The notes beneath the pieces are model-generated. The model did not search any database and was not told the DNA's origin. It saw only the letters and a program-made list of their open reading frames with translations. A program made the translations under genes and the position numbers. A stretch of DNA of 64,000 nt. It comes from Eledone cirrhosa (lineage: Eukaryota). The stretch is from positions 6,324,001 through 6,388,000 of the forward strand of contig OZ024762.1 of assembly GCA_964016885.1 (NCBI GenBank), given 5' to 3'. Shown here piece by piece: positions 8,774 to 62,813 of the stretch (positions are counted from its first letter, which is position 1; each line of letters begins with the position of its first letter).

Positions 8774-8968
8774 ATGACCACCACTACCAACAACAGCAAT
8801 ACAGTAAACGATGATAGTAGAAGTTGTAGCAGTAAGGTGTATGAGGACGAAAAAGAAGAAACTCCGGACTCCGATCGTAGACTGCCACTTGCTTTTAATT
8901 TAAGTCGCCATACGGAGAGAATTTTAGCTCCAGAAGTGTTAACACAGACATGGAGGATGAAAGAAAGG
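8774..8968 (+). CDS. RPTOR: RPTOR coding exon 1
   Basis: MTTTTNN...[10 protein letters not shown]...TQTWRMKER, donor GTTGGT; in-frame TAG at 8750 upstream supports this ATG. Confidence 0.85.
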
Positions 8969-23900: not shown

Positions 23901-26900
23901 AATGTATCTATATATTACTATTACTGTCGTGTATCAATGTAGGTTTATATTACTGTTGTGTACCAATGTATGTATATATATCACTGTCATGTGCTGATGT
24001 ATGTATATATTACTATTACTGTCATGTACCAATGTAGGTATATACAGGGTGCGGACGATATTTGTTCGCAAGATTACTGTCTAGGAAAAAACAAGTTTTA
24101 TTTTTTAAGATATATTTATCAAACTTGAGTCGGTTTGTCTTCATGACTTGTTCTTTCGATCTCACTCGATGAACCTGCCATTGGCTTTGATGACGGCCTC
24201 AAGGCGGCCTCGGAACCGGCTACAGGCCTTTGTCACTGTCCTCCCCCCGACTTAGGCCCCTAAAGGCACTTGTGATCCTGGCCTTCAGATCATCTTTCAT
24301 ATTGCAGCTAGATCTGTTGGTGTCTCGTGCCACTGCGCCCCACACAAAGAAGTAAAGGGGGTTGCAGTCAGGCAAGTTGGAAGGCCAGATGTCAGGTGAA
24401 GTGTGGTCAACGAAGTTCTCTGACAGCCAGGCTTGGGTCTTTCGGCTGGTATGGCAGGGCGCTGAGTCTTGCTGCCATACGTACGGCCTACCTGGTTGAT
24501 CCAGGGCTTTACTACCTCGCTCAGAACTTGGATGTAGCCATCGGTGTTCAGCTGGAGGCCCTCAGGGAAGAAGTGAGGTGGCATGACGTCACCTTGACTG
24601 CTGACGACACCTAAGACCAATGTTGTCGCTGGAAACTTTGTCTGCATGACTCTGGGCACATCTTTGGATGAGACAGCGAGCCACCTGTTGTTCTGTGAGT
24701 TGATCTTCTGGTCCTTATTTGTCCTCCCGGTGCGGATTCCAAGAAGAACTATGTGTCTCTTCCACAAATTTGGAGGTTCAAAATTATTCATAATCAATTA
24801 TTCTGAAAAAAAATAATGGAAATACAGTCACTATTTTTATGAAGACAAGAGTGACAACGGAAGTAAAAAAAATTTGCATAAAATTAGCAGTTGAAAATTG
24901 CGAACAAATATCGTCCACACCCTGGATATATGTATGCATATATATATTTCTGTATACATACATATATATATCAGTCATGTGCCAATTAAGCTATACAATG
25001 CCGTGCTATGTACCAAAGTAGTTGATGACGACTAATGTAATGCAAAGGAAATAGTGATGACGATGTGGATGACAGTGATGATGATGATGATATTCTAGAT
25101 GTATGGTGATGGTATGAGGAGGGATGGCAGTGTAATGAGGATATTCGTGGTGGTAATAGTGGTGATGTTACGAGGATGGTGGTGGCGGTGGTGATGTTTC
25201 GAAGATGATGGCGATGTTATGAAGATGATGGTGACGTTATTATGAAGATGGTGGTGTCGGTGATGATCATGATGATGACCTCTTCCAACCTAAATGACAT
25301 GATGAGATTTTATGCCACTTTTCTTGTTCTTTCTGTGAAGGGCTGCCTGGGATTTTGCTCTGGACATGTGTCTACGTCAACTGTCCAAGATAGTGGACAG
25401 CGATGGCACACAATTTGACCACAGCACTTTCTTTGCACAACAGCTAACAGCATTCCAAGTTTGGTTAACGTATGGTTCTGAGACGCGGAATCCACCTGAA
25501 CAGTTACCAATTGTATTACAGGTAATAACACGATATATTATTACAATATAGGGTACATTTTAATAATTATATTACAGGTAATAACACGATATATTATTAC
25601 AATATAGGGTACATTTTAATAATTATATTACAGGTAATAACACGATATATTATTACAATATAGGGTACATTTTAATAATTATATTACAGGTAATAACACG
25701 ATATATTATTACAATATAGGGTACATTTTAATAATTATATTACAGGTAATATTACATGATATATTATTTCAATATAGGGTACATTTTAATAATTATATTA
25801 CAGGTAATATTACATGATATATTATTTCAATATAGGGTACATTTTAATAATTATATTACAGGTAATATTACATGATATATTATTACAATATAGGGTACAT
25901 TTTAATAATTATATTACAGGTAATAACACGATATATTATTACAATATAGGGTACATTTTAATAATTATATTACAGGTAATAACACGATATATTATTACAA
26001 TATAGGGTACATTTTAATAATTATATTACAGGTAATAACACGATATATTATTACAATATAGGGTACATTTTAATAATTATATTACAGGTAATAACACGAT
26101 ATATTATTACAATATAGGGTACATTTTAATAATTATATTACAGGTAATATCACATGATATATTATTTCAATATAGGGTACATTTTAATAATTATATTACA
26201 GGTAATATCACATGATATATTATTTCAATATAGGGTACATTTTAATAATTGTATTACAGGTAATATTACATAATATTTTATAATATACACTATGCCCCCA
26301 CACCCTCCCAATGCAAGGTGGACGTGGAGGTGCCACGGCAAAAAAGCACCCAGCCCACACTGTAAATGAGGTTGGTGTTAGGAAGGGCATCCAGCTGTAG
26401 AAATCAAGCCAGAATCAGTTCTTGTATGAGCAAGACAAGGTCAGCTGACCGGACATTGCCCACAACAGGACAACCCGTCTCACTCCTGTTGGAGAAACGC
26501 CTCCCTCGTTGACCTCCACCACTTTCTATTTGGTTTTGGTCATATTTTTAGGGTGTGTAGCTGTATTACTGGTAATATCACATGGTGTATTATTACAATA
26601 TTTTATTACTGGTAATATCACATGGTGTATTATTACAATATTTTATTACTGGTAATATCATACAATGAAACATTATTATAATATAGGATATATATATATG
26701 GGCGGTGGATTGGCAGTATCGGTAGAGGGTCGAACGCCATGTTTTGAGGTAAAGAGTTACGGCCCTTTATGGTCTGGTTTCAAACCCCGCCGAGGTTAAC
26801 TTTGCCTTTCATCCTTACAGGGTCGATAAAATAAAGTACCAGTAATACACTGGGATAATTGCTGGCCTTGTGCCAAAAGTAGAAACAATTACAGGTAATG

Positions 26901-29900
26901 TCATAGAATATATGATAATAATTGTATTACTATTATGTGTAGTATTGGTAGAGAATCAGACACCATGCTTTGAAGCATAGTTACGGCCCTTTATGGTCCA
27001 AGTTCGAATCCCATCGAGGTTAACTTTGTCTTTCATCATCCTTACGGGGTCAATAAAATAAAGTACCAGTTATACACTGGGATAATTGCTGACCTTGTGC
27101 CAAAAGTAGAAACAATTATATTATTGTGTGTGTTTGTGTGTTCATATTTCTGTGTATTTCTGTTGTCCTATAATTTCTCTCTTTCAACATTGCAGGTTTT
27201 GTTAAGTCAAGTCCACAGAGTGAGAGCTCTAGAGCTTTTAGGCCGCTTCCTGGATCTGGGTCCTTGGGCAGTCAGCTTGGTAAGAATCTTCCTAGCACTT
27301 CATTCTTTCCTTGAGATTATATATATTTGAAATGGATATATTTCGCCTGTCGTTAGGCATGACACCATTCTGTATTACTTGATTTATGATATGGGTGGTT
27401 ATGGTGTGATCCACTATTCCAGATGCTTTCAGCATCTCTGCAACTATCCCTGATGGTCCAGCTGGTTTTCCTTGACTAAGGTTGGTCTCTCAGTTGAGTC
27501 CACTTAGGGCAGACCATCTTTGTCCTATGTGTTCCTCTCACCAGTCTTCCAAGCTACTTTCTTTTCCATGTCAGTTAGTTGCAAGTGCACTATTAGCATC
27601 TTGGAAACCTCCCAACATCATGATTTTTCCTGACACACTCTTTTGCAATCCTCAATACCTTGTGTCTTTATTCTTCACATTGTAAAACATGCATACATTT
27701 TATTATTTTCCACTTCCTTCCTTGCAAAGTATACTTTTTGCCTAGCTTCTTAATAATGCACCATGCTTTCCCCATTCCACCATTCTTTCCATGCCTGTTT
27801 CTTGGCCTTAATTGTCTCTTCCACCCTACTATTCACCACCAAGTTACTCTCACTCTCCAGCCACAAATCTCTTCTGTGGGCTTCAGCAGATTATCTTTCA
27901 GCAACTTCCACTATTCGTTTATATTGAAAATCTGTATTTTTTTCTTCCTTATTGCCTGAGGGTTCCTTCAACTTCCATGTCCTTCTCCTCCTCCAGGTTG
28001 CCCTCTGTCTCTGAGTTCGTCTATTCCTAACTTTAAAGTCACTAACTACTAGGTTATGTTGAGAGGAACACTCCTCACCAGTGAGAGTTTTATGTCCATT
28101 TTTCCACGCTAACGTTGTTCAGACGAGTTATCCTGTTGTGAGCAATGCCAGGTCAGGTGACCATGTCTTGCTCATACAGAACTGATTTTGGCTTTGTTCC
28201 TACAGCTGGATGACCTAACTGTAGAAACCAAGCCAACGTCATTTACAGTGAGTACTGGGTGCTTTTTGTCGTGACACCTACATGACCACTTTACAGCATG
28301 GGCTGGGTGCTTTTTGTTGTGATGCCTACATGACCACTTTACAGTGTAGGCTGTGTGCTTTTTATATATCATACTGTCTATATGCTTCAGCTTCGGCCTG
28401 TGGGATGTCTGGTCTTCTGTATTAATGCAAGAGGTCTCAGTCCTATGTCATACCCTTTGGGAGATGCAATTAGGCAAGGTCAGCTTTAATCACCTCGTCC
28501 CAAGTCTTCCTGGGCCTCCCCACTCCACGGTTTCCGTTGACTTTGAGGGCTCTGCCCCTTTTTATGCAATTGTCATCCTTCATATGCACCACATTTCCAT
28601 ACCAACATAATCTCCTCTTATGCCTAGTTTCTCTCTCGGTTTGTTTATGCTTTGCTATTCACGTATATTACTATTACACATCCATTGGAGCATGCAGGCT
28701 TAATTTCTTTCCAACCTGCGCTATTCATCTGCACACAGCGTTCTGGTCTCACAACCATGCAATATTGTTGTTTGTATGCACTCATCAAGACAAAAGTGCC
28801 CAGTCCCCACTGTAAAGATGGTTGGGTGTTAGGAAGGGCACCCAGCTGTAGAAACCAAACCAAAATCAGTTCCCGTCCCACCCTTGAAATGAAAATGAAA
28901 ATGAAATGAAATATAAATACGTGTATGTGTGTGTGTATATCCATATTACTTGCACCGTTTACCAGTGTTTTTTTAATTCTATTTCTTCATCAGGCATTGT
29001 CAGTTGGAATCTTTCCTTATGTGCTGAAGTTGTTACAGAGTTCTGCTCGTGACCTTCGACCTTTACTTGTATTTATATGGTCGAAAATTTTGGCTGTTGA
29101 TAGTGTAAGTATTACTGATTTTGTTGTTGGGATTGTGACTTAGGATTAGATAAGTGGGTTTAATTTTTTTTTTTTTTCTAAAGAAATGGTAGTGGCCTAG
29201 ATGTTAGACTCCTGATCGTATGGTTATTGGTTCAATTCCTGAACCAAGTAGCTGTTTGTATTCTTGAGCATGATGTTTCATTTTACATTGCTTTGCATGA
29301 TAGAACTGTGGCCAGTATCTTTAAAACACTTGAGAAGCCTTATATGAAATGCAACCTTGTCAGAGACCAGCTAATGGTGTGAAATGTAAATTTTATTTTT
29401 CAAAAGCCTGTGTCATTTTAACAATTGTGATACCAAGTCACTTGAAGTTGTCTCTGGTTGTATGTGTATGCAGTGTACCCCCAGCATTCGCGGTACCAGT
29501 TATTTGCGGAATTTTCTTTAGAACTTAACTAATAATTGTTCGTGGAAATCACCGCATATTTGCGGAATCCTAAATATCTTCCACATATTTTCAATGGCTT
29601 TTTTTCGTAGCAATATATATTTTTTTGTGCTTTTTGATGCTAAATTATTAATAACAACTAGCAGAAAAACTACCTTTCGGGTGGTTTTCTGCTAGTATGT
29701 GTAGTGTGCATATTGTTATTATATGCAAATATACCTGCATGTAGATATGATACATCAAATAAAATCGTAATTGACAATATGCACAGAAATTGAAGAGAGA
29801 CGGTGTTACACTGTCTTCTGTAATCAGTAAAGTAATCTATGATATATTTAAAAAAGATATTATATATAAACTGCATTACAGTGAAATGTTATGAAAACAG

Positions 29901-32900
29901 AAATTGAGATTAGTGATGGAAATATAATCGTTATGATATAACAATGGAAATATGTATGATATAACGAACGCTAACAGACCTTCAGTGAAATCTTAGAAAT
30001 AGATGTAAGTTCAAACAAAAAAACGTTATGATATAACAATGCAAATATATATGAACATTTTATATATAATGATATATAAGCGATGTGATATAACAATGAA
30101 AACATAGCGTACGGCAAAGTGTTATGATCTAATGCACACTAACCAGAAGTGTTGACATTTGAAAATTTTAAAAGAAATGAATCTTAAAATAAGCACTACA
30201 TTATATATTAGAATATTTGTTTAATCAAGAACTACGAAATTTAGTAGATAAATTACATAATATACATTCGTGATTTATTGAAAGTAATCCAACTTATTTT
30301 AATAATGTGTACAGAAAAAATAACCCTGACACAGTCTCGCAGTTCTCCAATCATTATATATGATACTCAAGCTAGCAAGGAAAATGATGATGATATATAT
30401 TCTCCAAATTGGCTGACTGAATACACACGTTTTTTCTCAAAAAATGTTTATTTCTATCCCTTTTTCACTCGCTTTCTATTTCATCTTTTATTTCTCATTC
30501 TATCTTATGAAGGACTAGTGCCCTATTATATCAAACGTTAAATTCAATTTTTAATTTGATGCAATGCCAATTTTGTACTTTTCAAGAATGCCTTGTTTAT
30601 TTGGTTTCATGTGGTACAGGATGTTATGGGTTAAAAGGGTTCATTATTGATTGTGTGAGTTTTGTTGGGATTTCTTTGTCTAATATTTCAAATATTTCTT
30701 TTCACTTGTAGTCTTGTCAAACAGAGTTGGTCAAAGATAATGGACATAACTACTTTCTCTCTGTCTTGAGTGACCAATGTATGTCTGTAAGTAGATTTCT
30801 CTCTCTCAATCACTCTCTTTGTTTCTGCCTGTCTCTTTGTTTCTCTCTATCTCTCTCGCTGTCTCTCTCACTCTCTCTCAGGTATACATCAAGGCTGAAG
30901 CTGCGATAGGCCAGATACCAATTAAATTATCATTTAAGACACAAAGCACTTAATGGTGTGGAAAGTTAATAAATCTCTTGGTGTGTTGTTTCCTTGAGCA
31001 AGACACTTTATTTCACATTGCTCCAGTTTACTCAGCTGTAGAAATGAGATGATAGGACTGGGGTCCCTATCATTCCACTACAAAGTGGTCGTGGAGGTGC
31101 CACGGCAAAAGAGCACCCAGCACTCACTGTAAATGAGGTTGGTGTTAGGTAGGGCATCCAGCTGTAGAAATCAAGCCAGAATCAGTTCCCGTCCCACCCT
31201 TGCAAGCAGGGAAAAGTGGACGTAAAATGATGATGATGATATATCTCTTTCTCTATCTGTTACCAACCCCATCTCCTCACAGAAACTTGTGTCATGTGAT
31301 GTTGAGTGACAAATGTTATAATTGCACCGTCTCCCTTCATTTCCAATCATCTCATTGGTTACAGGTTTCCCTATCGGCCACTTATTGGTTTCTGATGACA
31401 AGTGAGCAGGGAGTGTTTGTGTAACTCAGGTGTAACAAATATTCAAGGTCTCTGAGACTGGTGGGGAGCAACTGCAGAAGGTATCCCCAAACCAGAAACC
31501 TGCTCAGAATATTTGCAACATAATAGATTACACTAAAGTCACCCGAGGGCTCGTTTGTAGTGTTAAACCCCAGAACACATATCACTAGCGATTTCATCTG
31601 ACAATGACGCCAATTCGTTGTTCAGGGCAGATCCTTTATTTTATCAAACTCTGAAAGCAAGTATGACGCGGAATTAATTCATACTGAACATCAACTTCAG
31701 TTATCTCCCTTTGTTCCTCCACTAATTTGAGTGTGCGTGCAGGGGAATAGGAAGTATAAGCATTTTTTTATGGCCATTTTCTCTGCTACAGCAAGGGTTA
31801 GACTTGTGGGTCTTCATGACAGATGTTATACCCATCCTGGGTTCATTTTGAAGCTGTGTTTTACAGCTGGTTGCCCTTCCTAGCGCTAATCCCATTAGAC
31901 ATGCAGAGATATGGTGTAACAGTTCTAACACAGTTGGAGAAGCAACATTGTAGACAGGACTATACAACTAGATACATTTTGTAAATCTTAAATAAACTAT
32001 TTTTTTCTATTTTCTTTTTTTCTATTTTTCCTAGTCAGAACATCGGACAATGGCTGCTTTTATTTTAGCAACAATTGTTAATAACTATCCCCAAGGTCAG
32101 GTGAGTATTTCATAAAGATTATCTCTCCTGTTGTGAAGGTTTGTAGTTTATTGATAAGGGTGTGTTGGACTCACAATTGTAAGATTGGTTCCTGGACTAG
32201 CCGGCATATTGTGTCCTTCCGCAAGACACTTTATTTCACGTTGCCCTGGTCTACTTAACCAGGAAAACAGTTGTGATGATACTAGGGCTAAGCTCTATCC
32301 AATGAAAAGTAAAATTTTTTGGTCACGTGTCTCCTCTCCCTTTCACTGTGTCTTATGAGGTCCATATCTCCTCCCACTCTCACTTTGTGAAGTCTGTATC
32401 TCCTCCTCCTCCTCCCCTTTCACTGTGTCTCATGGTGTCCATATTTTCCTCCCACTCATTGTGTCCATATCTCCTCTTCCTCTCTCCTTCACTCTGTCTC
32501 ATGATGCCCATATCTCCTCCTTCCCCCTTTTTACTGTGCAGAGTCCCTGTTTCCTCTTCCGCTTCTCCTTCTTTTATTTCTTATTAATAAATACTGTTCT
32601 GTTCTGTTTTCAGAAAGCAACGTTTCAGGGCAATGTGATCTCCATCTGCCTTGAACAGCTTCATGACTCTAACCCACACTTCAGGCAGTGGTTAGCTCTG
32701 TGTCTTGGAAAGGTAAGTCCAATACTTTAACTCTTTCAGTAACCGACCTGTCCAAAACTGCCCTTTCTTCTACAATATGAAACTATTTTAAAGTGTTTAT
32801 AATTATCTAAAACATTACATCATGTTTTCAATAAGAACCTTTGTTAAGTTATGTTCCAAACACCAGCTAAATAATGAGAAAGTTAGTTATATTACTAAAT

Positions 32901-34789
32901 CCCTTCAAATTCTTGATTATTTTCAAAATGATTTGAAAATCCTAGGCAGTGTCTTTCATTAGAAATATAGTAACGAAAGGATTAAATTGTTTATCTATCT
33001 ATATATTACTAAAAGTCTGTGATTGCTTGTCTGTAATGTAATACAGCCAAAAGGGCGCATAATGGGAAAATAGTCTGAAAGGAAGTTGACCCTGAAATGG
33101 GAATACAAATGGAATAAAACAAGTTTTGCGTAAATTGGGGCACATGTTCCCGAGATATGGGGTTTTCTGGGTACCTTCATAAATAGAGAGAGAGAAGGAT
33201 AGAGAGGAAGAGATAGTGGTTGTGAGAAAGTAGATTGTGTGAGAAACATAGAGAGGGAAAGAGGAGACAAGGAAAATGGAAGAGAGAGAGAGAGAGCTGG
33301 TGGTGGTGTTGAATGAAATTGCAACCGGTGACTTCAAAGAAACGAATACAGCATTACTGAATCCTGATAAATAGAAACGGTTTCTAAGTGTGTGTGAATA
33401 TATATATATACATAAAAATATATATGTGTGTGTGTATATATATATATATATATACATAAAAAAAAAATATATATATATATATATATACATAAAAATATAT
33501 ATGTCAGGTCGCTCTCGAGTGCTACTGGTAACATGTAACCCAGTACAACCAGTCTCATGGTCGGGTCGCTGGCAACTAAACTGGCAACACCACCAAACTT
33601 GCTTGGTGAGGAGGGTGATATTTGGACACCCTGCAGGATGAAATCCCACTGAGGTTAACTTTGCCTTTCATCATTACAGGGTTGATAAAATAAAGTACCA
33701 GTAACACACTGGGATCGATTTAATTGACTTTCCTCTCCTCCAAAATTGTTGGCTTCGTGCCTAAATCAGAAACCTTTATGTATAAGAAACTTTTTTTTTT
33801 TTACTAAAAAACTTGACCTTTCTACATCTGTCTTTCTCCTTTACAGGTCTGGATGAACTATGAAGCAGCACGATGGTGTGGAGTCCGAGACCTTGCACAT
33901 GAAAAATTGAGCAGCCTGCTCACTGATTCTGTACCTGAGGCAAGCCTAACAATTCTTTCTTAAGTTTTTTCTTTTTCTTACTAATTTAATAATTTCTTTA
34001 AATATTATCATCATCAATTTTACATTCATGTCTCCCTGCCCCACCTCTGGAGTCCTCGACTGTATTTATACAGATCTGTATTTATAGTATATTTCAGCTG
34101 CTTTGTGTAGCCAAAATGCTTGAAACTGCCTCTTGTTCTACAGTGAAAAATTGCATATTTTAAAGTGTATAAACATTTTGAAATATGCAATTTATCTAAA
34201 ACTAAGTGAGAAATTAAGCATAAGAGGGATCAGATGCTGTTTAATTGAGAGGAGATTATGTTGGTATGGTCATGTGATGCCCATGAAAGACGGCAGCTGT
34301 GTAAAAAAGTGCAGGGCGATCAAAATTGATGGAAGTTACGGAGTAGGAAGACCCCAAAAGACTTGGGACGAGGTGATAAAAGCTGACCTTGCACCTCTCT
34401 AAGACAATGTCACTGGATCAAGATCTTTCGTGCTATGCAGTTATACAGAAGACCCGCCTTCCCTTGTGCACAGACTTAAACTTACAGCCTTTTAATCCAT
34501 TATACAATCCCTACACTGCCAACCCACTTCTGCTCACACTACCCTTACTCTGTAAAGTTATGCTGATATCAGAAAACATCCAGCCCACACTGTAAAGTGG
34601 TCATGTAGGAGACACGGCAAAAAGCACCCAGCACACAGTGTAAATGTAGTTACCGTCAGGAAGGGCACCCAGCCAGAAGCAGTCCTATATGAGCGAGTCA
34701 CGGTTATCCCACCCAACTTGCCTCTAATGGGACAAACCTGTCTAACCCATGCTAGCGTGGAAAATAGACATTAAACAATGGTGATGATG

Positions 34790-34820
<31 letters not shown>

Positions 34821-37800
34821 ATCATCATCACATGTCTATTTTATTTTTCAAGATTGCATAGGTTAGACAGATTGTCACGAAATGAGGCTAGACAGGTCAA
34901 GAGCCCACGTCTCGCTCATATAGATCTGTATTTTGGCTTAGCTTCTACAGCCAGATGCTCTTCCAAATGCCAAACACACACATATATAATATGATTTTAC
35001 AGATCGATATGATATTACAATGTTTAAGGACATAATACATTATCTCAAACCAGTCACTTACTAACTTGTTCAATAATATCAGGGATAATTTCTGCATTAG
35101 AACATACTCATTTAGATTTAGTAGTAATGTGACAATACCTAAAGTATACTAGGGCGATCAATAAATTTAACATTGAGACATTAAGATCTTGTTTCAATTC
35201 AGCCAAACTATTAACTGCAGTTTTGTAAAAAGTGCTAATTAAGTTAATTAGGATGTAATTTTAGACTGTTGGAATCTCACCAGTAAACACTGTAGAAAGA
35301 CCATTAAACATCCCAAAAGAGATTTGTTGGTTTGTGTGTGGTAGACAGTTGCTGCAATAAGACAATGGTCAGCTATGCTGTTAGGGAAAATGGCAGGAAA
35401 ATAATAAATTATAATTGTCTTCATCGACACATACAAACACACACAAACACACACACACACGCACACATATAGTCTGACGAGCAGATCAATACTGGAGTCG
35501 GGTCCATAACTCCTATGGGTTACCTTGAGCCAATCCTCTGCAAAACATGAGTAACAGGTCAATATGCAATAAATATTTTTTATATGTAAACGAAACTTCC
35601 TCGTTTTTTCTATTATATACACTCTGCTTGTGCATAGAGTGGTTGATTTGGTACCAATACCAGTAATTCGCTGTACTACCCACACTATATATGTATGTAT
35701 ATATATATGTGATTCAGTGAATTACTGGTGGTGGTACCAAACAGTTTATATTTTGTTGAATCACCAGTCTGATGAGTAAATTGATCCTGGAGTTGAGTCC
35801 ATAACTTCCATGGGTGACTTTGAGCCAATCATCTGTGAAATCATGTAAACAAAACTTCATTTTTCTTATATATATTTACACACGCACAAATAACATATTA
35901 ACAAATGGCCCTCCAAAGTAGAAGAGTTTACTCATTTATGATTTGACAATAAACAATATTTTTCATACATCGTGGGTTTCAAAAAAAGAAAATTTCAACA
36001 TAACAACCCCCAGTGCTACAACTTCTCTCTCTCTCTCTCTCTCATACCATCCCCTGTGTGATTAAATAAATTCCACCACCACCACTCAGTTCTATCGATC
36101 ACGCACTTACCTTTTACACCAGGTGTAATATATTGTTAGCATTTAAATACATTGCATTCTCATATTTTCACTCTTCAAATACTTTCAGGTTCGTGCCGCT
36201 GCTGTGTACGCGCTGGGAACTTACATCAGCTGTTGTTCTTCAGCACGTAGTGACCACGCCAGCAACATAGACTTAGGTATTGGGATGAATTTGACACATA
36301 TTATACATGATGGAAGTTCCCTTGTGCGAAAGGTATATATATATTTCATATTTGACTATATTTTCATCATCATTTTATGTTCACTTTTCGCTGTGTGTAG
36401 TGTACAGATCAAATTAGTACTTAATTGGTGTTACTCTCCTCCCAAATTGGTCCGGAACTCTGTCTCGCTTACACGCGTTTTGACTTGGTTCCTATGACTG
36501 AATGTCCCTACTCATGGCAACCACTTTACAAAAAGTAGAGTGTATTTTATCATGGTACCAGTATTAAGAAAGTTGTCATGTCCTTGACGTGACTGCTTAT
36601 TTTTTACGTGGTTTCTATAGCAGGATGTCCTTCATAATGTCAGTTATTTTACTAAGCTGTTTTATCAAGGTTCAAGCATCAGAGAGATTATCTTGTTGAC
36701 ATAACTGAAGAGCTGTCTCAACACTTTTGACAGGGTTTCTATAAGTGTTACTGTTACTATTCTTGCTGTTAGCTTCACTTTGCCAATTTGTTGCCTCTCA
36801 AAGAAGACTATCATTTACTGACTTACATCTCTTTACATTCTCTCTTCCAATTTTACTCTTATTGGTTTTTGTCTTTTATTCCTTTTGTCATGGTTTTTAT
36901 GTCAATAAAAATATTGTACCAGTAATATATATTCTGTAAAGTGGTAGTGCTAGTGCCATAACAAAAGAAAGGTGGTAGTACTGGTGCCATGGCAAAAGGT
37001 ACCCAGTCCAGCCTGTAAGCCCAAAACAAATCTGTATGAGCAAAACATGGTCACCTGATCCGGCTTGACTCAATGTGACGACCTGTCTAACCTATGCTAA
37101 CGTGGAACATAGATATTGAATGATGATCTGTGTTGTTGTTTTCTAATCTTGTGACCTCTTATGACCTCTACTGCTGTGATTTTGTGACCTTTACTACTAT
37201 GAGTCCTTGTGACCTCTACTACTGTGTGTCCTTGTGACCTCTACTGCTATGATCTTGTGACCTCTCCTGCTGTGATCTTGTGACCTCTCCTGCTGTGATC
37301 TTGTGACCTCTGCTGCTGTGATCTTGTGACCTCTACTGCTGTGACTCCTTGTGACCTCTACTCTCTGCGACTCCTTGTGACCTCTACTCTCTGTGACTCC
37401 TTGTGACCTCTGCTGCTGTGATCTTGTGACCTCTACTGCTGTGACTCCTTGTGACCTCTACTCTCTGTGACTCCTTGTGACCGCTACTCTCTGTGACTCC
37501 TTGTGACCGCTACTCTCTGTGACTCCTTATGACCTCTACTGCTGTGACCTTGTGACCTACTGTTGGACCTCTTTATAACCTCTGTTTCTAGGAACTTGCT
37601 GTTGCTCTGGGTGGTCTAGTCCAACAGTTTGAGTCCCCATTTGTTGCTGTAGCTTCTCAGATGATAGGAGAAGAACGACTGCGGGAGAAGAATGCTCCTA
37701 TGATAGCCGCTGTGACAGCTGGTGGGTGGAATGTTGTCGCACCAATATCTTCAGGTTTGTATATATTCATTCTCATTTACACACCCTTTTGAAACTAACC

Positions 37801-42643: not shown

Positions 42644-42696
<53 letters not shown>

Positions 42697-45410
42697 CAAA
42701 TGAGATCGTGTAGGTGTCACGACAAAAAAACACACAGTCCACGCTGTAATGTGGCCGTGTAGGCAACACGGTAAAAACCTCCCAGACCCACACTGTAAAT
42801 GTGGTTGGTGTTAGGAAGGGCATCCAACTGTAGAAAACCTGCCAGACAGTCCTATGCGAGCAACACAATCACTCTTGCCTCAAGTGGGACTACCCCCGTC
42901 CAAACCCATGCAAGCGTGGAACACGGACGTTAAACGTTGATGATGATGATGATGATGATACAAACAGATACATACGCACATACACATGTATAGATACACA
43001 CATAAATACACATGCTTACACACACAATTACACAATTATACATTATACATAAAAAAAAACGTGACAATCACTTGATCACCTACAGATAAGGGGAGCGCAC
43101 CAGCCAGATAGATTTCATCATTAGTAGAAAACGAGACAGTGTATCTGTTATAAACACTAAGTCCCTCCCTCGTGAAGAATGCACCTCCCAAATTAACCTA
43201 ATGGTTAGTGACCTCATAATCAGGAGTACATGTACTCGACAATAGAGGAGGACAGGCAAAACAGCTGGGCCTTCTGAGATAGTTGCTGGAATGGTGGGAC
43301 ATACTATGGTCACCCAGATAGTAAACTAAGTAATACATTATGGGATCATACCAAAAGACTGGCGTAACAGCATCATCAACAACTTTTACAAGGGCAAAGG
43401 AGATGCCGTAGATAGAGGAAACTATAGAGGCATTAAGTTAGTTGACTAGGTCATGAAGGTCACAGAAAGAGTTATTACACAACTGATTAGAAACCAAATT
43501 GATCTAGATGAAATGCAGTTTGGGTTTGTGCCAGATAAAAGTACCATGGATGCTCTCTTCCTTGTACGGCAATGACAGGAGAAGTACCTAGATAAAAGTA
43601 AACCCCTCTACTTAGCTTTTGTTGACTTGGAAAAAGCCTTTGACAGAGTCCCCTGCTCCATTATCTGGTGGGCCTTTAGAAAACTAGGTGTAGATGGGTG
43701 GCTTGTGAGAGCTATACAAGCCATGTATAAAAGAAACAGTCAGTAAGGTTAGAATTAACAATGAATATAGTGAAGAATTTAGCGTAAAAGTTGTTCATCA
43801 AAGCTCCATCCTGAGCCCTCAGAAGAGTTTAAGAACTTCTATATACAGATGGTCTAACAGTCATAGCTGAATCTATGGCTGAACTAGAGAAGAAATTCCA
43901 AACATGGAAGCATGGCCTAGACTCTAAAGGCCTTAAAGTTAACTTTTCTAAGACTAAAGTTCTAGTATGTAGAAAGGAGAATAGGGCACAGGTGCCCTCT
44001 GGGAAATGGCCATGCTCAGTGTGTAAGAAAAGAGGTAGAAATTCCATTCTATGCCCCAAATGCAAACTATGGGTACATAAAAGATGTAGTGGGATCACAG
44101 GTAAGCTATTTAAGAATGTAGATTTTATATGTGGCCGATGCTCAGGTGCAGTAAGTAGCAAGGGCCCACTGGATACTATCTCCTTCAACTGCCCAGATGG
44201 TTCTATAGAAATGGTAAACACTTTCCGTTACGTGGGTAACAAAATCAGAAATGGAGGAGGGTGCTCTGAAAGTACTGTAGCCAGGGTTAGAACGGGATGG
44301 AAAAGGTTGAGAAAGCTAATTACACTGTTGGCCACAAAGGGTTTTTCTCTAAAAATGAAAGGCAGATTGTATGATGCTTGTATACAAATAGCAATATTAC
44401 ATGGTAGTGAGACCTGGGCATTGTGTGCTGAAGACTTGCATGCGCCAATGGATGTGTAATAGTAATGTACGCGAACGGCAAAGCATAAACCAATTGAAAG
44501 AGAGACTAAGCATAAGAGGTATCAAATATTGTGTGCAGGAGAGGAGATTGCATTGGTATGGACATGTGATGGGTATGAAGGACAACAGCTGTATAAAAAA
44601 GTACAGAGCGATCAAAATTGATGGAAGCTACGGAGTGGGTTGACCAAGAAAAACCTGGGACGACGTGATAAAAACTGACTTTGCTCACTTACACCTCCCT
44701 AAGACAATGTCACTGGATTGTAATCTTTGGTGTTATGCAGTTATACAGACAACCTGCCTTCCCTTACATACGAACTTAAACCTACAATCAGTAGGCACCT
44801 CTTAACCCAATATACACCCCACACACCCCTACACCATCCTCCCACTTCCGTCCATTGTAAAATGGTCGTGTAGTAGACACGGTAAAAAGGCCCCCAGTCC
44901 ACACTGTAAAATGGTCGTGTAGTAGACACGGTAAAAAGGCCCCCAGTCCACACTGTAAAATGTTTGTGTAGTAGACACGGTAAAAAGGCTCCCAGTCCAC
45001 ACTGTAAAATGGTTGTGTAGTAAACACGCTAAAAAGGCTGGGATGCTCAATCTTGGCTTGGCAGCCGTTGAGAATGGAGCTCCCGTTGAACGCTACCGCC
45101 AAGTGCGAATTTAGCGCAGTTATTATATAGAGGGCAATCCCAAAAGTAAGGTCTCCTTCCGAGGAAAACATGCGTAAAGATCGGCGGATCACTCTGGATG
45201 CTCTCTGCATTTTGGTTCCTGAGGTTTCCCGAAGCACCATCCACAGGATTTTAACGGAAAAATTGCAATATCGGAAGGAGACCTTACTTTTAGGATTGCC
45301 CTCAGACCAGCCCAGTCCGGAGCAAGACAAATAGTCCAACAATAGTTTAGCTGACTGACAAATTAGTTTCCTTCTTGGTTCACTGTTGAGTAGTTAGCAG
45401 TAGTAAGAAC

Positions 45411-45486
<76 letters not shown>

Positions 45487-48400
45487 CATCACCATCATCA
45501 CCATCACCATCACCATCATCATCACCACCATCATCATGTCTGCTTCTTCGTGCTTGCATGGGTTTGGAAAGCTTTTGTATCCTTTCCTCATCGTCTTTGT
45601 GAGGCTCACCATTCTAAGATCATCTTTCAACACTTTGGCTCAGGTTTTCCTCTTCTGCAGCTTCCATCCTCCAATAACATTATCATTGCACCAGGTGTCA
45701 CCTCTAATAACATTATTATTACACCTATCAACTTTATCAACCCTAACAACCCTGTTATCACTCCTAACAACCTTGTTATCAACCCTAACAACCTTGCTAT
45801 CAACCCTAACAACCTTGTTATCAACCCTAACAACCTTGTTATCAACCCTAACAACCTTGCTATCAACCCTAACAACCTTGTTATCAACCCTAACAACCTT
45901 GTTATCAACCCTAACAACCTTGTTATCAACCTAACAACCTTGTTATCAACCCTAACAACCTTGCTATCAACCCTAACAACCTTGCTATCAACCCTAACAA
46001 CCTTGTTATCAACCCTAACAACCTTGCTATCAACCCTAACAACCTTGCTATCAACCCTAACAACCTTGCTATCAACCCTAACAACCTTGTTATCAACCCT
46101 AACAACCTTGTTATCAACCCTAACAACCTTGTTATCAACCCTAATAACCTTGTTATCAACCCTAACAACCATGATATTACCCCTAGCAACCATGTTATCA
46201 ACCATAACAACCATGTTATCACCACTAACAACCGTGTTATCACCCCTAACAACCGTGTTATCTCTTCTATGTTACAATTTCTGTCTAACTTAACTACCAT
46301 TACCACCACCACTTCTACTAATACTACTACCACTACTAATACTACTAAAGGTGGTTGACGAGCGCTTAGCTGTTAAGTGAGGATGCCTTAGGCTGTGATT
46401 TGATAAATTTGTTTGTTTCAGGCTACAGAGCCGTTGACTAAAAATCACTTCTCTTCTAATTCCTGCCAGTCTGCACCCTCAAGTCCTCCTGGCCGAGGCC
46501 CCAACTTTGCTGCAATGAGGAAGTAAGTAATCTTGTTGGTGTGTTATTGTGTTTTATTGTTTTATTACTTCGTTATTTTACTGTTATTATTAACAGAATC
46601 GTCAAAGAGTGGTGGATTGGCAGTATTGGTAGAGCGTCGGACAACATGCTTTGCGGCATAGAGTTACGACCCTTTATGTTCTGAGTTTAAATCTTGCCAA
46701 GGTTAGCTTTGCCTTTCATCCTTCTGGGGTCAATGAAATAAAGTACCAGTAACACACAGGAGACGATTTAATCAACTTTCCCTCCCCCCAAATTGTTGGC
46801 TTTGTGCCTAAATCAGAAACAATTAATAACAGAATCATTAGAGCATCAGACAAAATGCTTTGTGAGATTTGTTTTGGCTCTTTCGATACCAAGCTATTTG
46901 ACACCACCCCGGGTTCTAGGATACCAAGCTATTTGACACCACCCCTGGTTCTAGGATACCAAGTTATTTGATACCACTCCTGGTTCTAGGATATTAAACT
47001 ATTTGACACACTATCACCCCAGGGTTTTAAGATACTAAACTATTTGATACCACCCCTGGTTCTAGGATACTAAACTATTTGATACCACCCCTTGTTCTAG
47101 GACACTAAACTATTTGATACCACCCCTTGTTCTAGGACACTAAACTATTTGACACCACCCCTGGTTCTAAGATATTAAACTATTTGATACCACCCCTGGT
47201 TCTAGGACACTAAACTGTTTATTTTAGAGTCTTTATATTTTACTAAAAACCTTCCATCATTTCTTGTATAAACTTCTCTTAAGCTATATTCCAAACACCA
47301 GCATGACGATGAGAAAGTTAGTTGTATTTTTAAATCTTTTAAGATTCCTGATTATTTTCAAAATGATTTGCAAATTTTAAGCAGTGTCTTTCATTAGAAC
47401 ATTCGTAATGAAAGGGTTAACATTTTGAAATATTTTAAACTTAATGGACTTGTATATAAAACAATCCATGTTTTTTTGCACAAGAATTTTTGGATAATAA
47501 TCTTTCTTTCTATTTTGACCTATATGCTAGTACACCATCAATTAACGTTCTCTTTCCCTGCTAGCAAGGGTTGGATGGGTTTTCACAGACAGTCAGTACT
47601 GAAGTGGGACTACTGATCTCCCAGACAGGCTGGGGCGTCTGCATTTTGCTTACATACAGTCCTACATTCTACCAAGTGCATTTTATCATGGCACCAACAC
47701 AATAGAAGCTGTCATGTCTTTGACACAATTGAAGGTTTTCCAAATTTTAAGAATTTATTTTTAATTTTTTAATTAAATAAAGGATTGAATTGGGTAAAAT
47801 ACCCTTCATCATCATCGTTTTTATGTGTTTTTATGCTTGCATGAATTGGATGAGTCCTTTTCAGCACAGTATCTCTCTACTTGCTATGTTCCTTTGTCAT
47901 TTCGTCTGTGATTGTTTCTAAAATATGTGGTCCTGGGTTCATTCCCTCTACGTGGTACACATGGGCAGGTGTCTTCAGCTATAGCACAGGGTTGACCATA
48001 GCCCTGTGAGTGAAATGTGGTAGATTGGTCACTTTGTGAAAGCCTGTTGTAAGTGTTTATCTATGTCTAAACTTTCAAACCCTTAGAGATGTAAAAACAA
48101 AAAAAGACAAGCACCTCTGTAAGTGCTTCTATCTACTTTTTCCATTTCTAAGGGTGTTTTTACCAAGTTTTCTCAGCTATTATTTATAGTGATTGATGAT
48201 GATGATTTTCAAATCCTCACACTGTTCCAGAAATCATAATGTTTAATAAAATATCTTTTCCAGTCATTCAGCAGACATGCCAGATTCCAAATTTGATATG
48301 AAAGTTGACCAAAACAATGAAAAACGGCCTCGTAGCCAAAATTCTGAAAGTTCAACTGAGGGTCGAAGAGAAATAACAAGCCCGAATAAGAAGAGCTCAT

Positions 48401-51400
48401 CATCAGTACAGACTAAAGATTCGGGCTTGGGGACACTGAACAAAGGTGCAAATATGGCGAATGTCATGACCAGCTCCCAGGAACTTCGACGCCACCAGCA
48501 ACAGCAGCAGCAAGGGACACTATCCGCTGGCTCAGGAACTCATCGACGAGATAATTCTGGTGAGCGGAATCGCCGTAGTCCATCGCACAGTGATACAAAT
48601 GGCGGGGACAGTGACTCTGCCAAGTCATCAAAGCGTGGCTCCCGTAATAGACCAGCATCTCCTGCAAGCCAGCTGATCCCATATTCAGCGCAATTCTTAC
48701 CAACACGGAAGATGTTTGATAAGGGGCCTGGACATGTGAGTGTAACCCTCTCTTTTGATCAATATCATATATATATATATATATAGGAAAAAGTATGACC
48801 CCGACGGCAGAGCTCAAGCCGTTTCGACGGCTATTTCTGGACAGAAATAACCGTTGAAACGGCTTGAGCTCTGCCGTCGGGGTCATACTTTTTCCTATTT
48901 CCCACTCTACTTCCCTAAGTATTGAGTACTCTGGTGCGTTATGGTCCATCTGGTTCCTTACCACAATTCCATTGTTATATATATATATTGAACTGTCTGA
49001 TCCATATATATGTTAACCTGTCAGATCAATGTGAGAGGGTGAATTGTCTGATCAAAGATGAACTGTCAGATCAATATAATGTGATAGGCTGAACTGTCTG
49101 GTCAATGTATAATTTGTATTAAATTTTATTAACCTATTTTAATATGAAACTACTTAAACTGTCCCTGATTCTATGATACAAAAATGTTTATTTTACAGTT
49201 TTTTTTATATTCATATGTGATAACAAAAATGTTAGTGTTCATATTTATCTCAAAAACCACCACAATTTTATGTAAGAACTTTTGTGATCTTCCAAACACC
49301 AGCTTGATAATGAGGAAGATCGTTATATTACACTAAATTCTTGATTATTTTCCTAATTAATTGAAAACTAGTGGGTTTAATGAAATTGTTAAACATCACC
49401 TTATTTCACAGAACCCCTGAGTTTTTTTCCATTGAGACCCATTTGTTTGTTAGAGACTTCTATATGTGTGGGATGGTTTTCTCTGATAGGTTGATGATAA
49501 AAAAGATGAACCAGGAAATAAGGAGTTCAAAGAGCCATTGGTCACAACGGAATTCTTCAAGTGGAGCAGCAAGTATTTCGCACAACCGTTGAGACCTGGA
49601 GATGAAGGAGACCCTGAGAGTAAGCTGTCGATGGAACGAGACTACAGATTCCAACGAAATGCTACCGTTAGGAATGAAGCTAAACTTGAGCAGTTCAAAG
49701 CGGGTGAGTTTCAAGCTGCTCCCCCTCATTACTATCATCATCATCACCATCACCTCCTCTTCTTACTCCTTGTAATGGGGAATTAACTGGCTAGTTTTTT
49801 CACTTTTGCTGTTATCATGGCTATCTTTCATTGATCTCCCCTTGAGTCATGTTTCACTGTTATCATGGCTATGTTTCACTGTTATCATGGCTATCTTTCA
49901 CTGATCTCCCCTTGAGTCATGTTTCACTGTTATCATGGCTATGTTTCACTGTTATCATGGCTATCTTTCACTGATCTCCCCTTGAGCCGTGTTTCACTGT
50001 TATCATGGCTATGTTTCACTGATCTCCCCTTGAGCCGTGTTTCACTGTTATCATGGCTATGTTTCACTGTTATCATGGCTATCTTTCACTGATCTCCCCT
50101 TGGGCCGTGTTTCACTGTTATCATGGCTATGTTTCACTGTTATCATGGCTATCTTTCACTGATCTCCCCTTGGGCCGTGTTTCACTGTTATCATGGCTAT
50201 CTTTCACTGTTCAACTTTTGATCCACGTTTCAGGCCACAATCGATTTGATGATCAGATATTTGTCAATAAGAACTCAGGAAGTCCTGCTGTATTGCGTTT
50301 CCACCCCTATGAAGCCCACTTAGCAGTTGCAGACAAGGACAATATTAGGTAAGGGGTTGTAGGGGAGTGTTTGAATTTTATTTTTATTTATTTCAATGTT
50401 TAACCTTTTAGCTATAAAACATTTGGTTGTTTACTATCTTTAATGTTGGAGGTAGAAAGGATCCGAAAAGATGATATAGATTTATAGGCTGCGTGTTCAT
50501 GTTTTTAGTCCATGTGGAAAGATCAAATCAGAAAGTACATGTTGAAATATAACAAAGGTTTATTTTCTTCCGTAAATTAATACAAGCACTTACAGAGTGG
50601 AAAGCTGCAAGCATACCACATAATTGAGTTGAAGGAAAACAACGTGTGTGAAATATAGGAAGAATGTTGTTGGGTCCTTGCCGAGAGGGCAGGGTAAGTG
50701 CTACATTTTGTGAGGTATCAACCAGCAACGTAATTAGTGAGGTCTTGTGTCGACGAAATGAAAGCCGCAACTGATGGGTAGAAGTGGAAAAAGGTGCGAA
50801 GCAACTGCTGGGCGGAAGTCGTCTTTGTATTCATACGCCGCCAACCCCGAAGGGCTGGCGAGTGACAAAGCCTGACCAAACCATTCCGCAACCACGAAAT
50901 AGTGCCATTGCTTGCTACAACCTTTATATTTTTTTGTACCAGTGATTCAAGTTTCATGTTTGCTGGCCTTGTGCCAATGTTAGAAAGAATTAATATGTAT
51001 ATATTTCCATGTCTCTATTATTTTCTGCAGTATATGGGACTGGGAACAAGGTATCCAGCTTAGCTATGTGAACAGCTGCCATCCAAAGAACTGCCGAATA
51101 ACATCCATGGAGTTTATTAATCCACATGACCAGGCCCTGTTAATGTGTGGTTCAGGTAAGAATGATACGCATCCATGTTTACTCACATTTATTAATCCAT
51201 ATGACCAGGCCCTCACATTAATCCACATGACAAAGCACTGCTAACATGTGGCTCAGGTAAGGATACCCTTCCACGATTACAGATTTAGGTTTGGTGCATC
51301 TGTCATTAAAACACTCAAGAAACCTTATGAGATGCAATATCATAGGAGGCCAACTAAATCTGAATAGGTATGTAAATTTCATTTTCAAGTTCATGTGCCC

Positions 51401-54400
51401 TAGTGGTTAGGGTGTGGTCTCACAATTGTGTAGTCACGGGTTTAATTCTCGGTCAAGAAGGTATGTTGTGTCCTTGAGCAATACATTTCAATTTACGTTG
51501 CTTTAGATGAAAATAGCAACAGCAGGTGGGGTTTTACCATGTGACAGACAGGTGTCCTGGCCAAGGGGGAATCTTGTACTTAGTTGCTTAACGACAATGA
51601 AATAGCGATAAGCTCTGGCCCGGTGTGCCTCTAGAAAAAAATCCCCACCATTTGTGGATAGACTCTACCTTTTCTGAACATTGATTGACAGTGTCTGGAA
51701 TAGCTCTGGTCATGTCTCTGCAGAGTCAGGTTTGACCTGGGCTTAAGCATCATCATCATTTAACATCCACTTTCTTTGCTATGGATGGGTTGTCAGCACT
51801 TAATCAGAGCCACTGACGTCTTAGAAAGGCCAGGGGTGCTTTTCACTTACATATGTTCCTGCCCTCTACTTAGTGCATTTTATTATGGCACCAACACTAG
51901 GGAGGTTGTCATGACTTTGATAAAGCTGAAAAGTCTCCCAGCCCTTTGTTTGGCAAGTTTTCTATTATCGGATGCCCCTTTTTTTACTACCAACTATTAT
52001 ACAGTGTGTGTTGGGTGCAAAAACACCATTATCATAATGAAGCAGAATAATATCATTCTCATAATAAATACATCATTATTATTATGCCATTCTGAGTTCA
52101 AATCCTGCCGAGGTTAACTTTGCCTTTCATCCTTACGGGGTCGATAAAATAAAGTACCAGTAATGCACTGAGTAATTGCTGGCCTTGTGCCAAAAAGTAG
52201 AAACAATTATTATAATAAAAACACTATCTAAACTATAATAAAATAAGGAGTGTGGGACTGCGTCCAGAATATATTTCTTTATCCCGTTTGTAAAATAAGT
52301 TGGATTACTTTGTATAAATAATGAATGAATATTACATAATTTATCTACTAAATTTCTTTATTCTTGATTAAATATGAATAATTTTGTTGCTTATTTTAAG
52401 ATTCACTTCTTTACAATTTTCAAATGTCAACACTTCCGGTTAGCGATCGATTAAATAAACATTTATATATTCCCGTCACTAATTTTCTCCTAATACAGTT
52501 TATATATAATATCGTCTTTTTTTTTTATATATCATGAATTACGTTACTGATTAAATAAGACAGTGTAACGCAGTCTTCGTTCAATTTCTGTGTATATTGT
52601 CAATTACGATTTTATTTGATGTATCATATCTACATGTATATATACCTGCGTATAATATCAATATACACACTACACATGCTAGCAGAAAACCACCCGAAAG
52701 GTGGTTTTTCTGCTAGTTATTATAATAAAGACATCATTATTATAATAAAAACATTATCTTAATGTTAATGGAAGTCTTGTATTGTTTGTGTTCAGATGAT
52801 GGTTCTATACGAGTGTGGCGCCATTACAGTGAGCAGGGCAAGCAGGAATTGGTTACTGCATTTCAGGGTCTCTCAGAAATGTTGCCTTTACACCGAGGTA
52901 GGTATTATATTGTTGCTGGAAATGTTGCCATTACTGTTTCTCAGAAATGTTGCCTTTACACAGGTGTATTTCATTAAAAATATGGTAATGAAAAGGTTAG
53001 TTTTTTAAAACCCTAGGCAGTGTATTTCTTTAAAAATATAATTGTGAAAGGGTTAATTTAAAAAAATAATAGGCAGTGTATTTCATTAAAATATAGTAGT
53101 GAAAGGATTAATTTTTTATAGGCAGTGTATTTCATTAAAAATATAGTAGTGAAAGGATTAATTTTTTTATAGGCAGTGCATTTCATTAAAAATATGCAGT
53201 TTTCCAATACCACAAACAAAATGAAGCAATGAAGATGATTTTCTTTTCTTTGATTGTAGGTTCAGGTTTAGTAGTTAGTTGGGACCAGAACACTGAGACA
53301 TTGTTTACTACAGGTGATGCACGCATCATAAGAATATGGGACATCCACCGAGAAATGAAGACGCAGGTAAGCTCTTTTGTTTTTGTTGCTTCATTATCAA
53401 CAGCAACATTCTCATTTTATGTCTGTTTTCCATGCTAGTATGGGTTATATGGATCGTTAAAGTCCAAGATGTGTTGAGTTGGCTCATAGATTCCATATTT
53501 TGGCATGGTTTCTATGACATGATATCCTTCCTAACACTAACCTGTAAGTCTTTTATTAAGATACCAGCACCACTAATACTACTACCTCTTCTACTACTAG
53601 TTTCCTTAAGTGTACTAATGTGTTATTGTCAATATGGTATAAATTTGTATGTGTAAATTGAATTATAAAGGGAGAGAGAGAGGTGTATATATGTAAAGAA
53701 ATAATAAATGTATAACTAAATTTGATTTTGGACAAAGTGGTTTTGGATGCCATTTAAAATATATAATAATGAGGATGATGATGATAATTAATAATAATAA
53801 AACCCCCCAAAAAGGCTTTCAAATGTATCATGGAAATCACAATGCCATGTCTTTCTGATACAACCAGCTGTTATTTATTTATTTTGTTCCTTTTTAAAAT
53901 TTATTTTTAATTTCTTGAAGGAAATTTTTTTATAATTCTGTTAGAATGCATAACTCTAAGTCCTAGCAAATTTTGTTTGTTTAAATACCTATGTAAAATA
54001 GTGGTTGTACTTCACTTTTTGAGGATTGTTTTCAATACTGACATATGTCATATTCAAATGGAAACATTTTACCAGTAATGTAAACACATATATGAAATAA
54101 ATCGTAGAGGTAATAATGTTTCTTGTATTTTTTATTAATTCTGATGAATCCAATCATTGGATGATATAATTAACTAATATTTAATTATACATCTTGTGAG
54201 ATAAAAGAAACGTGCGTTAATTAATATATGATATAACTAACAGTATTTGGTTTTATTTTCAATGTTATACATGTATATGTATAACATATATATAGATTCA
54301 GTTATGTTAGCAGAAAAATGGGTAGATAAGGTGATTGCCGTAAATAGAGTGAATGACAGAATAATTAGAATAAGACTAGTCCTAAATAGAACTACTGTGA

Positions 54401-54865
54401 CAATAATATCCACTTATGCACCCCAATCTGGCCTACTTGACATTATAAAAGACAGGTTCTATGAGTCGCTAATACTGACTATCTCCCAAATAACCGACAG
54501 TGACTACATAATTATTGCTGGTGACCTTAATGCAAGCAGGGAAAAGCGGACGTAAAATGATGATGATGATGATGATGATGATTCAACCCTTGATAGCGGG
54601 GAAAGCAGACATTGAATGATGATGGTGTTTACATTCATAATTTATTTCCTCTTTTTTTGTATCCCATATAAAACTGAATGAAATGTTTGTTGATTATCAA
54701 CAGGATTTACTCACCGGTGCAGACAGTTGTGTGACCAGCATCACATCTGACCCTTCCAATATGGCTGTGTTGGTAGCAGGATGTGGTGATGGATCAGTGC
54801 GTGTTTTTGATAGCAGACTTTCACCATCAGAATCGTAAGTATTTCTATATTTTATTTCATTCTAT

Positions 54866-54905
<40 letters not shown>

Positions 54906-57395: not shown

Positions 57396-57426
<31 letters not shown>

Positions 57427-62018: not shown

Positions 62019-62239
62019 AGTAATAATAAATATGAAGACTAAAATCCAAAGAGGGCTCGATAAGGATAAATATATATCAAATATATAAGAATCCTAGAGC
62101 AAATATTTATTAAAATAACAGATTAAAGTTTAAGCAAAGAATCGCTGCTTTCACCCTTAACGGGATCTTCTGAAGATCCTGTTATGGGTGAAAGCAGCCA
62201 TTCTTTGCTTAAACTTTAATCTGTTATTTTAATAAATAT
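62019..62239. mobile_element. Short element ending in a 137 bp palindrome; collapsed relative at about 6165-6270
   Basis: Arms 62103-62170 and 62172-62239; shared gaagactaaaatccaaagagggct...ctagagcaaatatttatta body. Confidence 0.75.
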
Positions 62240-62389
62240 ATATATATATATATATATAATACACTAGTCCAATATACACATACATACATGCATAAACAGA
62301 TATGCACACACACACACATATGGAGGTATAAATTCAAACTGTATTTATGTTCTATTTTCTGCTTTTTTAGACTTTTTATCTCTCTCCAC

Positions 62390-62685
62390 ACACTGTCACC
62401 TCCTTCCCCACCCACTGTCACCTCCTTCCCCACCCACTGTCACCTCCTTCCCCACCCACTGTCACTTCCTTCCCCACCCACTGACACCTCCTTCCCCACC
62501 CACTGTCACTTCCTTCCCCACCCACTGCCACCGCCTTCTCCAACCACCACCAGCAGAACCCACTGTTCTAAGCATTCAGACCAGGTCCTTACTTCCTCTC
62601 CACTAGTCTTGGAAGGTATGAAAAAAGCTCTGGGCCTGTACACTCATTAAAATAAAAAAAAATAAAAAATATATGAACCATCTGT

Positions 62686-62749
<64 letters not shown>

Positions 62750-62756
62750 CCTCTAC

Positions 62757-62813
<57 letters not shown>

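Follow-up and report, generated by a model that had tools for sequence, protein, structure and literature searches.

Minisatellites whose unit spans an exon-intron boundary have been described in amphioxus as mirages, in Adh3 and in the globin genes BflGb6 and BflGb9 (Ebner et al. 2010, PMC3087553). According to that report, the arrays are polymorphic in length, the genes are spliced normally, the boundary units are left out of the homogenisation, and intron gain was already proposed as a possible outcome. Donor-spanning variable number tandem repeats (VNTRs) are known from human F7 intron 7, CBS intron 13, IFI6 (6-16), LMNB2 and PDGF (Borensztajn et al. 2006, PMC1557585), where the measured site use is of the first donor only or of the first two or three. 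In F7, LMNB2 and PDGF (PMC1557585), as in amphioxus Adh3 and globins (PMC3087553), splicing relies only or mainly on the authentic site. The VNTR in ABCA7 intron 18 affects splicing depending on its length (De Roeck et al. 2018, PMC5954066), introns have been born via tandem duplication of AG-GT inside coding sequence (Hellsten et al. 2011, PMC3265369), and splicing variation has been associated with thousands of tandem repeats in humans (PMC10078293, PMC13196383). Here we describe exon edges copied into adjoining introns of the growth-control gene Raptor (RPTOR) of the octopod Eledone cirrhosa, in a window of 64,000 nucleotides (assembly GCA_964016885.1, contig OZ024762.1, positions 6,324,001 to 6,388,000 of the forward strand; positions below are those of the window). 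We consider, with a probability of about 0.7, that the four copied exon edges found are ordinary local duplications of the mirage kind, tolerated as the authentic site stays by its exon.

The Raptor gene lies on the plus strand (8774..60115) and consists of 32 coding exons with 62 junctions in one frame of 1448 residues, as modelled by tblastn and junction search. The protein is 96.5% identical to Raptor of Octopus vulgaris, 96.5% to that of O. sinensis, 95.9% to that of O. bimaculoides, 94.0% to that of Argonauta and 84.1% to that of cuttlefish. The 31 introns (46,995 nt in total) have AG and GT at the exon borders, with 30 GT donors and one GC donor, which belongs to intron 16 (33939-33941). 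The exon numbering of the initial annotation, made from the letters of this DNA, agrees with the 32-exon model. When every offset from 8 to 500 nt was scanned uniformly over all 62 junctions, exon sequence was found copied into the adjoining intron at exactly four of them: the exon 10 donor, the exon 19 acceptor, the exon 25 end and the exon 26 end. The same four had been pointed out in the initial annotation (14 copies at exon 10, ten at exon 19), and all of them are real. In the same scan, local duplications at a score of at least 15 numbered in the hundreds in the real window and at most one in block-shuffled windows. Protein comparison shows that other cephalopods have conserved the residues for which the copied exon bases code, and thus the direction of copying is from exon to intron.

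The largest of the four cases is at exon 10 (25341..25521, plus strand), which is supported by both the gene model and the duplication scan and the 60 residues of which (25342-25521) match Raptor proteins, with Octopus vulgaris as the top match at 100%. Its last 13 nt open a donor-spanning minisatellite (25509..26287, plus strand) with 14 copies of a 56-58-nt unit, so that the authentic donor is followed by 13 decoys with the same 9-nt donor. The unit is composed of the 13 nt of exon and the start of the intron, and there is an in-frame stop inside the first unit. Among the inner units, seven have the same sequence, and a change common to 12 inner units is absent from the first and the last unit, which retain the exon's base there. 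Three remnants of the unit (26559..26695, plus strand), older and shortened and with CTG in place of the CAG before GT, have been severed from the array by the insertion of a dispersed repeat, and a fourth, decayed remnant with an intact donor (26882..26935, plus strand) lies beyond a second such insertion.

At exon 19 (38891..38965, plus strand; 75 nt, phase 1-1) the acceptor is spanned by a minisatellite of ten 38-nt units (38541..38906, plus strand), comprising nine decoy acceptors and the authentic one. Here 22 nt of intron are joined to 16 nt of exon, and the units match the authentic one at 27-35 of the 38 positions, the far end unit being the most divergent (27/38). The remaining two cases are smaller. 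The end of exon 25 with its donor at 51155 (51113..51161, plus strand) is the source of two decayed copies (51188..51262, plus strand), one at 51188-51213 (25/26 matching) and the other at 51217-51262 (38/46), with a decoy donor after 51256. Similarly, the end of exon 26 with its donor (52871..52897, plus strand) is the source of two partial copies (52919..52963, plus strand) at 52919-52934 (15/16) and 52939-52961 (23/23), behind which there is a weak in-frame decoy donor after 52963. Both pairs are decaying, as the 38/46 match at exon 25 and the truncation at exon 26 indicate. Two further duplications, one of 107 nt at 19710-19922, whose consensus opens with a donor-like motif, and one of 54 nt at 23336-23440, are entirely intronic and were rejected as junction copies.

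The initial annotation knew of no named feature class for such copies, but the class exists, as mirages in amphioxus (PMC3087553) and as donor-spanning minisatellites in five human genes (PMC1557585). Judged from their sequence, the Raptor cases belong to the mirage kind. Tandem units span the boundary at exons 10 and 19, exons 25 and 26 being decayed cases of two to three copies. The units (56-58 and 38 nt) and the spacings at the smaller cases (68 and 75-101 nt) fall within the mirage range of approximately 10-160 nt, and AG/GT signals are kept in 13 of 13 main-array decoys at exon 10 and in nine of nine decoys at exon 19. Concerted evolution that leaves out the boundary units is seen at exon 10 and more weakly at exon 19, and the F7-type order of an authentic donor and then identical pseudo-donors is present at exon 10. 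All copies are intronic, which is not the arrangement of intron birth by AG-GT duplication within coding sequence.

The introns carry approximately 30 local duplications (30 merged events in the gene at a score of at least 20), so a few would be expected to fall on one of the 62 junctions. When every intronic position was given the same criterion as a mock junction, the four junctions seen compared with 1.45-3.37 expected (P 0.06-0.44) in 20 of 21 settings, and in the one stricter setting three junctions were counted with 2.5-2.8 expected. Restricting the null to non-dispersed DNA or to GT/AG sites (15 rows) gave 1.50-2.58 expected (P 0.065-0.26), and among multi-copy arrays alone the overlap was 2/19 vs 0.73-0.84 (P 0.17-0.21). 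A mutational process biased to junctions, one of the two explanations offered in the initial annotation, was to be given up if overlap proved no commoner than the repeat background predicts; within this one gene that is what we observe, though the 95% interval of the overlap ratio (0.3-6.8 fold) is too wide to exclude a bias. In addition, an exon-derived copy would stay recognisable longer, because its exonic source is held constant by selection, and this may inflate the count of old two-copy cases.

How such copies could persist is suggested by their anatomy. The reading frame would be disrupted by a duplication within an exon, but where only one junction is spanned the first donor or the last acceptor stays where it was, as it does at these four junctions. 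Exonic duplications would thus be purged, and it is likely that junction-spanning copies are kept because the authentic splice site remains beside the exon and the copies would be spliced out with the intron. Two of the cases would then have grown to arrays by normal minisatellite turnover, to which the homogenised interior, the differing ends and the severed old remnants at exon 10 point. The exon-adjacent site is likely to be the one used, winning by position as in F7 and the amphioxus mirages. Use of a decoy mostly leads to a premature stop in the predicted products, which would probably be followed by decay of the mRNA. Nonsense-mediated decay is an established pathway that removes stop-containing mRNAs.

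For splice-site strength, a scoring matrix was built from the 31 sites of the Raptor gene itself, so the authentic sites are favoured in the scores. A stop is predicted at residue 476, within the first unit, for all 17 downstream donor copies of exon 10, at residue 761 or 777 for all nine upstream acceptors of exon 19, and at residue 1235 for the decoy of exon 25. The sole in-frame decoy free of stops is that of exon 26, which would add 22 residues and has a score (4.2 bits) lower than that of any of the 31 authentic donors (4.5-12.8). The intact reading frame runs through the authentic sites, and the protein of 32 exons is colinear with its relatives. The initial annotation had raised a lineage-wide route to new exons and introns, by which array units become exons or the AG-GT in a unit makes an intron. 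The exon-10 units do carry AG-GT and score as acceptors (8.6 bits), the exon-26 decoy would be tolerated by the frame, and such an outcome has been proposed for mirages (PMC3087553) and demonstrated for the duplication of coding sequence (PMC3265369). However, almost all decoys end in stops, no new exon or intron is seen, and 12 full-length cephalopod Raptor proteins, which are from other species and speak only to shared new coding sequence, have no insertion at the exon 10, 25 or 26 junction. We therefore consider this route very improbable here.

The other explanation in the initial annotation was that the copies are retained as splicing regulators, with decoys tuning productive splicing, above all the inclusion of exon 19, or producing stop-containing isoforms that lower the dose of Raptor. 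Exon 19 is the case where this has most to offer, being a cassette exon in cuttlefish: it is present in five of the eight full-length proteins of the cuttlefish cluster and exactly this exon is skipped in three, which implies that both of its flanking introns exist there. It is also absent from the O. bimaculoides model. The decoy acceptors score 3.3-12.3 bits, and one upstream decoy outscores the authentic site (12.3 vs 10.9 bits). Moreover, the arrays of human ABCA7, CBS and IFI6 either influence splice sites or provide them (PMC5954066, PMC1557585). Exon 19 is nevertheless an old exon, judging from similar sequence in abalone, limpet, chiton and a nemertean, and because its skipping is seen in cuttlefish too, the skipping is likely to predate the octopod array. 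Furthermore, the two-copy cases are decaying, and in the older exon-10 remnants the donor is no longer complete. The preserved donor in the exon-25 copy needs no selection either, since at a divergence of approximately 17% the chance of eight unchanged bases is about 0.2. Selected regulation is thus, in our view, a rather improbable reason for the retention of the copies. As side observations on this exon, one cuttlefish Raptor model has seven extra residues ahead of it, and there is a limpet isoform without the stretch similar to it.

Beyond the junctions themselves, minisatellites had been listed in the initial annotation as beginning close to seven further exons, and these are real, lying 54, 23, 33, 36-44, 159, 1 and 59 nt from exons 3, 4, 18, 20, 21, 24 and 31, respectively. 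With multi-copy minisatellites defined by a period of at least 12 and approximately three or more copies, and with arrays collapsed before the distance tests, there are 19 in 15 of the 31 introns (17948..59320), and 15 of these 19 have an end no more than 160 nt from an exon. This compares with 8.4 when the arrays are shuffled within their own collapsed intron (P 0.0002) and with 5.3 when they are shuffled over all introns, the threshold-free P being 0.010 and 0.0001, respectively. Arrays of period at least 7 gave 22/34 vs 15.3 (P 0.006), and a folded-position test of arrays gave P 0.0001, or 0.004 without the three junction-touching arrays. Within introns, no excess near exons was detected for all local duplications (19/33 vs 16.7, P 0.22; P 0.003 when any intron was allowed), nor was there one for microsatellites (3/10 vs 2.4). 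The closeness test concerns one gene, picked because the pattern showed in it, and its 160-nt limit was drawn from the same data. The proposed recurring pattern thus holds in part: in this gene multi-copy minisatellites do cluster near exons, whereas the overlap with the junctions is itself within chance.

Such clustering would be produced if minisatellites in this genome were preferentially duplicated or expanded at exons and close to them, with mirages as the tip of the process, for example through allelic gene conversion or repair that starts in low-polymorphism exons and slips at intron heterology, or through transcription-linked structures at exon edges. We regard this as unlikely. The closeness of multi-copy arrays to exons under both shuffles, the folded-position result and the survival of the signal under three blastn repeat masks argue for it, and because the signal is confined to multi-copy arrays and is not a property of all local duplications or of microsatellites, it points to expansion, not nucleation. 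On the other hand, the overlap with junctions is non-significant, local duplications do not take up a larger share of the intron close to exons (7.5% at 1-50 nt vs 17-25% beyond), the strand-skew pattern is weak (Fisher P 0.10), and both the choice of the gene and the distance limit go back to the observation itself. In addition, the masks detect only families with at least two copies inside the 64 kb, so mobile elements are undercounted and the unique intron length is overestimated. It is similarly doubtful that octopod genomes in general have an exon-anchored bias by which minisatellites are born or expand preferentially within approximately 150 nt of exons, perhaps via conversion or repair from conserved exons. 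If this were true, a genome-wide process would stack decoy splice sites beside exons, the mirages being its visible edge, and array length could tune the inclusion of Raptor cassette exon 19.

It is likely that the clustering results from sheltering, in which exon flanks resist insertions and long deletions and would retain old DNA together with its arrays, while the middles of introns are turned over by mobile elements. Dispersed repeats occupy 3% of the intron within 50 nt of exons vs 26-50% deeper, and such depletion near exons is found likewise in mammalian introns (PMC3088655). The three blastn masks, which covered 36-44% of the intron, hit 0-12 exon bases and led to five or six repeat-derived arrays being dropped, support sheltering in part, and as a cause it would be only partly sufficient. 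With a tblastx-based mask the fixed-distance signal was gone (10/11 vs 9.2, P 0.36; threshold-free P 0.05); this mask was rejected because it also masked 1588 of the 4347 exon bases (37%).

Several results weigh against our reading of tolerated local duplications and sheltered arrays. After blastn masking, 13 of 14 arrays still end within 160 nt of an exon vs 8.0-8.2 expected (P 0.001), or 12 of 13 vs 7.6, with a threshold-free P of 0.024-0.034, and modelled sheltering leaves part of the closeness unexplained. Short direct-repeat seeds are not richer near exons (7-mer recurrence 0.7-0.8% within 160 nt vs 0.7-1.0% deeper), and low-complexity seeds as a cause of the clustering were rejected as unsupported by this recurrence. 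The point estimate of the junction overlap is 1.2-2.8 fold, and the sole acceptor array among the four cases adjoins the cassette exon 19. The 13 main-array decoys of exon 10 are identical to the authentic donor at 5.9 bits, the exon-25 decoy donor is as strong as the authentic one at 10.7 bits, and in human IFI6 (6-16) and CBS (PMC1557585) and in ABCA7 (PMC5954066) the nearest decoys are used.

Some features near the exons deserve description in their own right. The array at 49809..50232 (plus strand), with 22/26/48-nt units, runs up to the exon 24 acceptor without containing any copied exon bases, and its 11 internal ends read CAC, not CAG. Together with the acceptor-proximal arrays at 37150-37591 and 45734-46262 it is nearly free of AG (0.2-0.9 vs 5.4 per 100 nt in introns overall). 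These three arrays look as if amplified from AG-free zones, while two other acceptor-proximal arrays are not AG-poor. Directly upstream of the exon 18 acceptor there is sequence similar to the unit of the array at 37150. Exon 21 (46422-46522) starts 16 codons upstream of what the O. vulgaris protein shows, and two O. sinensis Raptor isoforms differ by 16 residues, which suggests an alternative acceptor inside this exon.

Elsewhere in the window, introns 1 and 2 (8969-17732, 8.7 kb) have no local duplication at a score of at least 20, all 30 events being in the other 38 kb of intron. The 49-nt arrays at 39151-40128 and 44856-45038 were amplified from a piece of a dispersed repeat, with 20 copies at 97% in intron 19; we take their source to be probably a short interspersed element. 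A decayed stretch in intron 20 (43100-44700) reads by eye like what is presumably a reverse-transcriptase remnant of a long interspersed element. Short elements in which TA runs flank an internal inverted repeat, and which resemble miniature inverted-repeat transposable elements, recur in the window (48776-48945, 6309-6500). On the minus strand at 61211-63705, three candidate small exons (63705-63670, 63107-63062 and 62635-62593) can be joined in a single open frame, and what lies between them is almost entirely minisatellite. A 24-nt array there (63139-63673), which might begin at a donor, has the candidate donor motif 16 times. No homolog of this putative gene at 61.2-63.7 kb was found in searches and its splice-site scores are mixed, and being unproven it was not counted.

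The Raptor gene extends mirage repeats to a cephalopod. It also provides a natural test piece for splice-site choice, with 13 identical decoy donors and nine decoy acceptors, the latter at a cassette exon, in one essential gene. Our literature search, which did not include the term 'mirage' and shows absence only weakly, found no report of such repeats in cephalopods or of minisatellite clustering near exons. If the clustering held genome-wide in young arrays, it would point to a connection, so far undescribed, between the structure of genes and the mutation of repeats. Intron gain by the Rogers/mirage model would then become testable in a lineage rich in such repeats.

Compared with the systems described so far, the Raptor cases are closest to the amphioxus mirages (PMC3087553), with which they have in common units that are tens of bases long and span the boundary at a donor or an acceptor, AG/GT signals that are kept, and homogenised inner units with divergent end units. 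The host is here an octopod, and two of the four cases are decayed duplications of two to three copies, not arrays, unlike the mirages as reported. As in the F7-type VNTRs, the first unit at exon 10 carries the exon end and the donor and identical pseudo-donors follow downstream; the human cases as described (PMC1557585) are on the donor side only and have measured site use, whereas Raptor is known here from its sequence. The ABCA7 array (PMC5954066) likewise starts at a donor, and use of the next unit's site there leads to a frameshift and a premature stop, as predicted at Raptor, but its unit, as presented in that report, begins at GT and copies no exon bases. Tandem duplication of an AG-GT-bearing stretch is shared with the case of Hellsten et al. 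(PMC3265369), in which the duplication is exonic and makes a new intron, whereas the Raptor copies lie in seemingly older introns and have made none.

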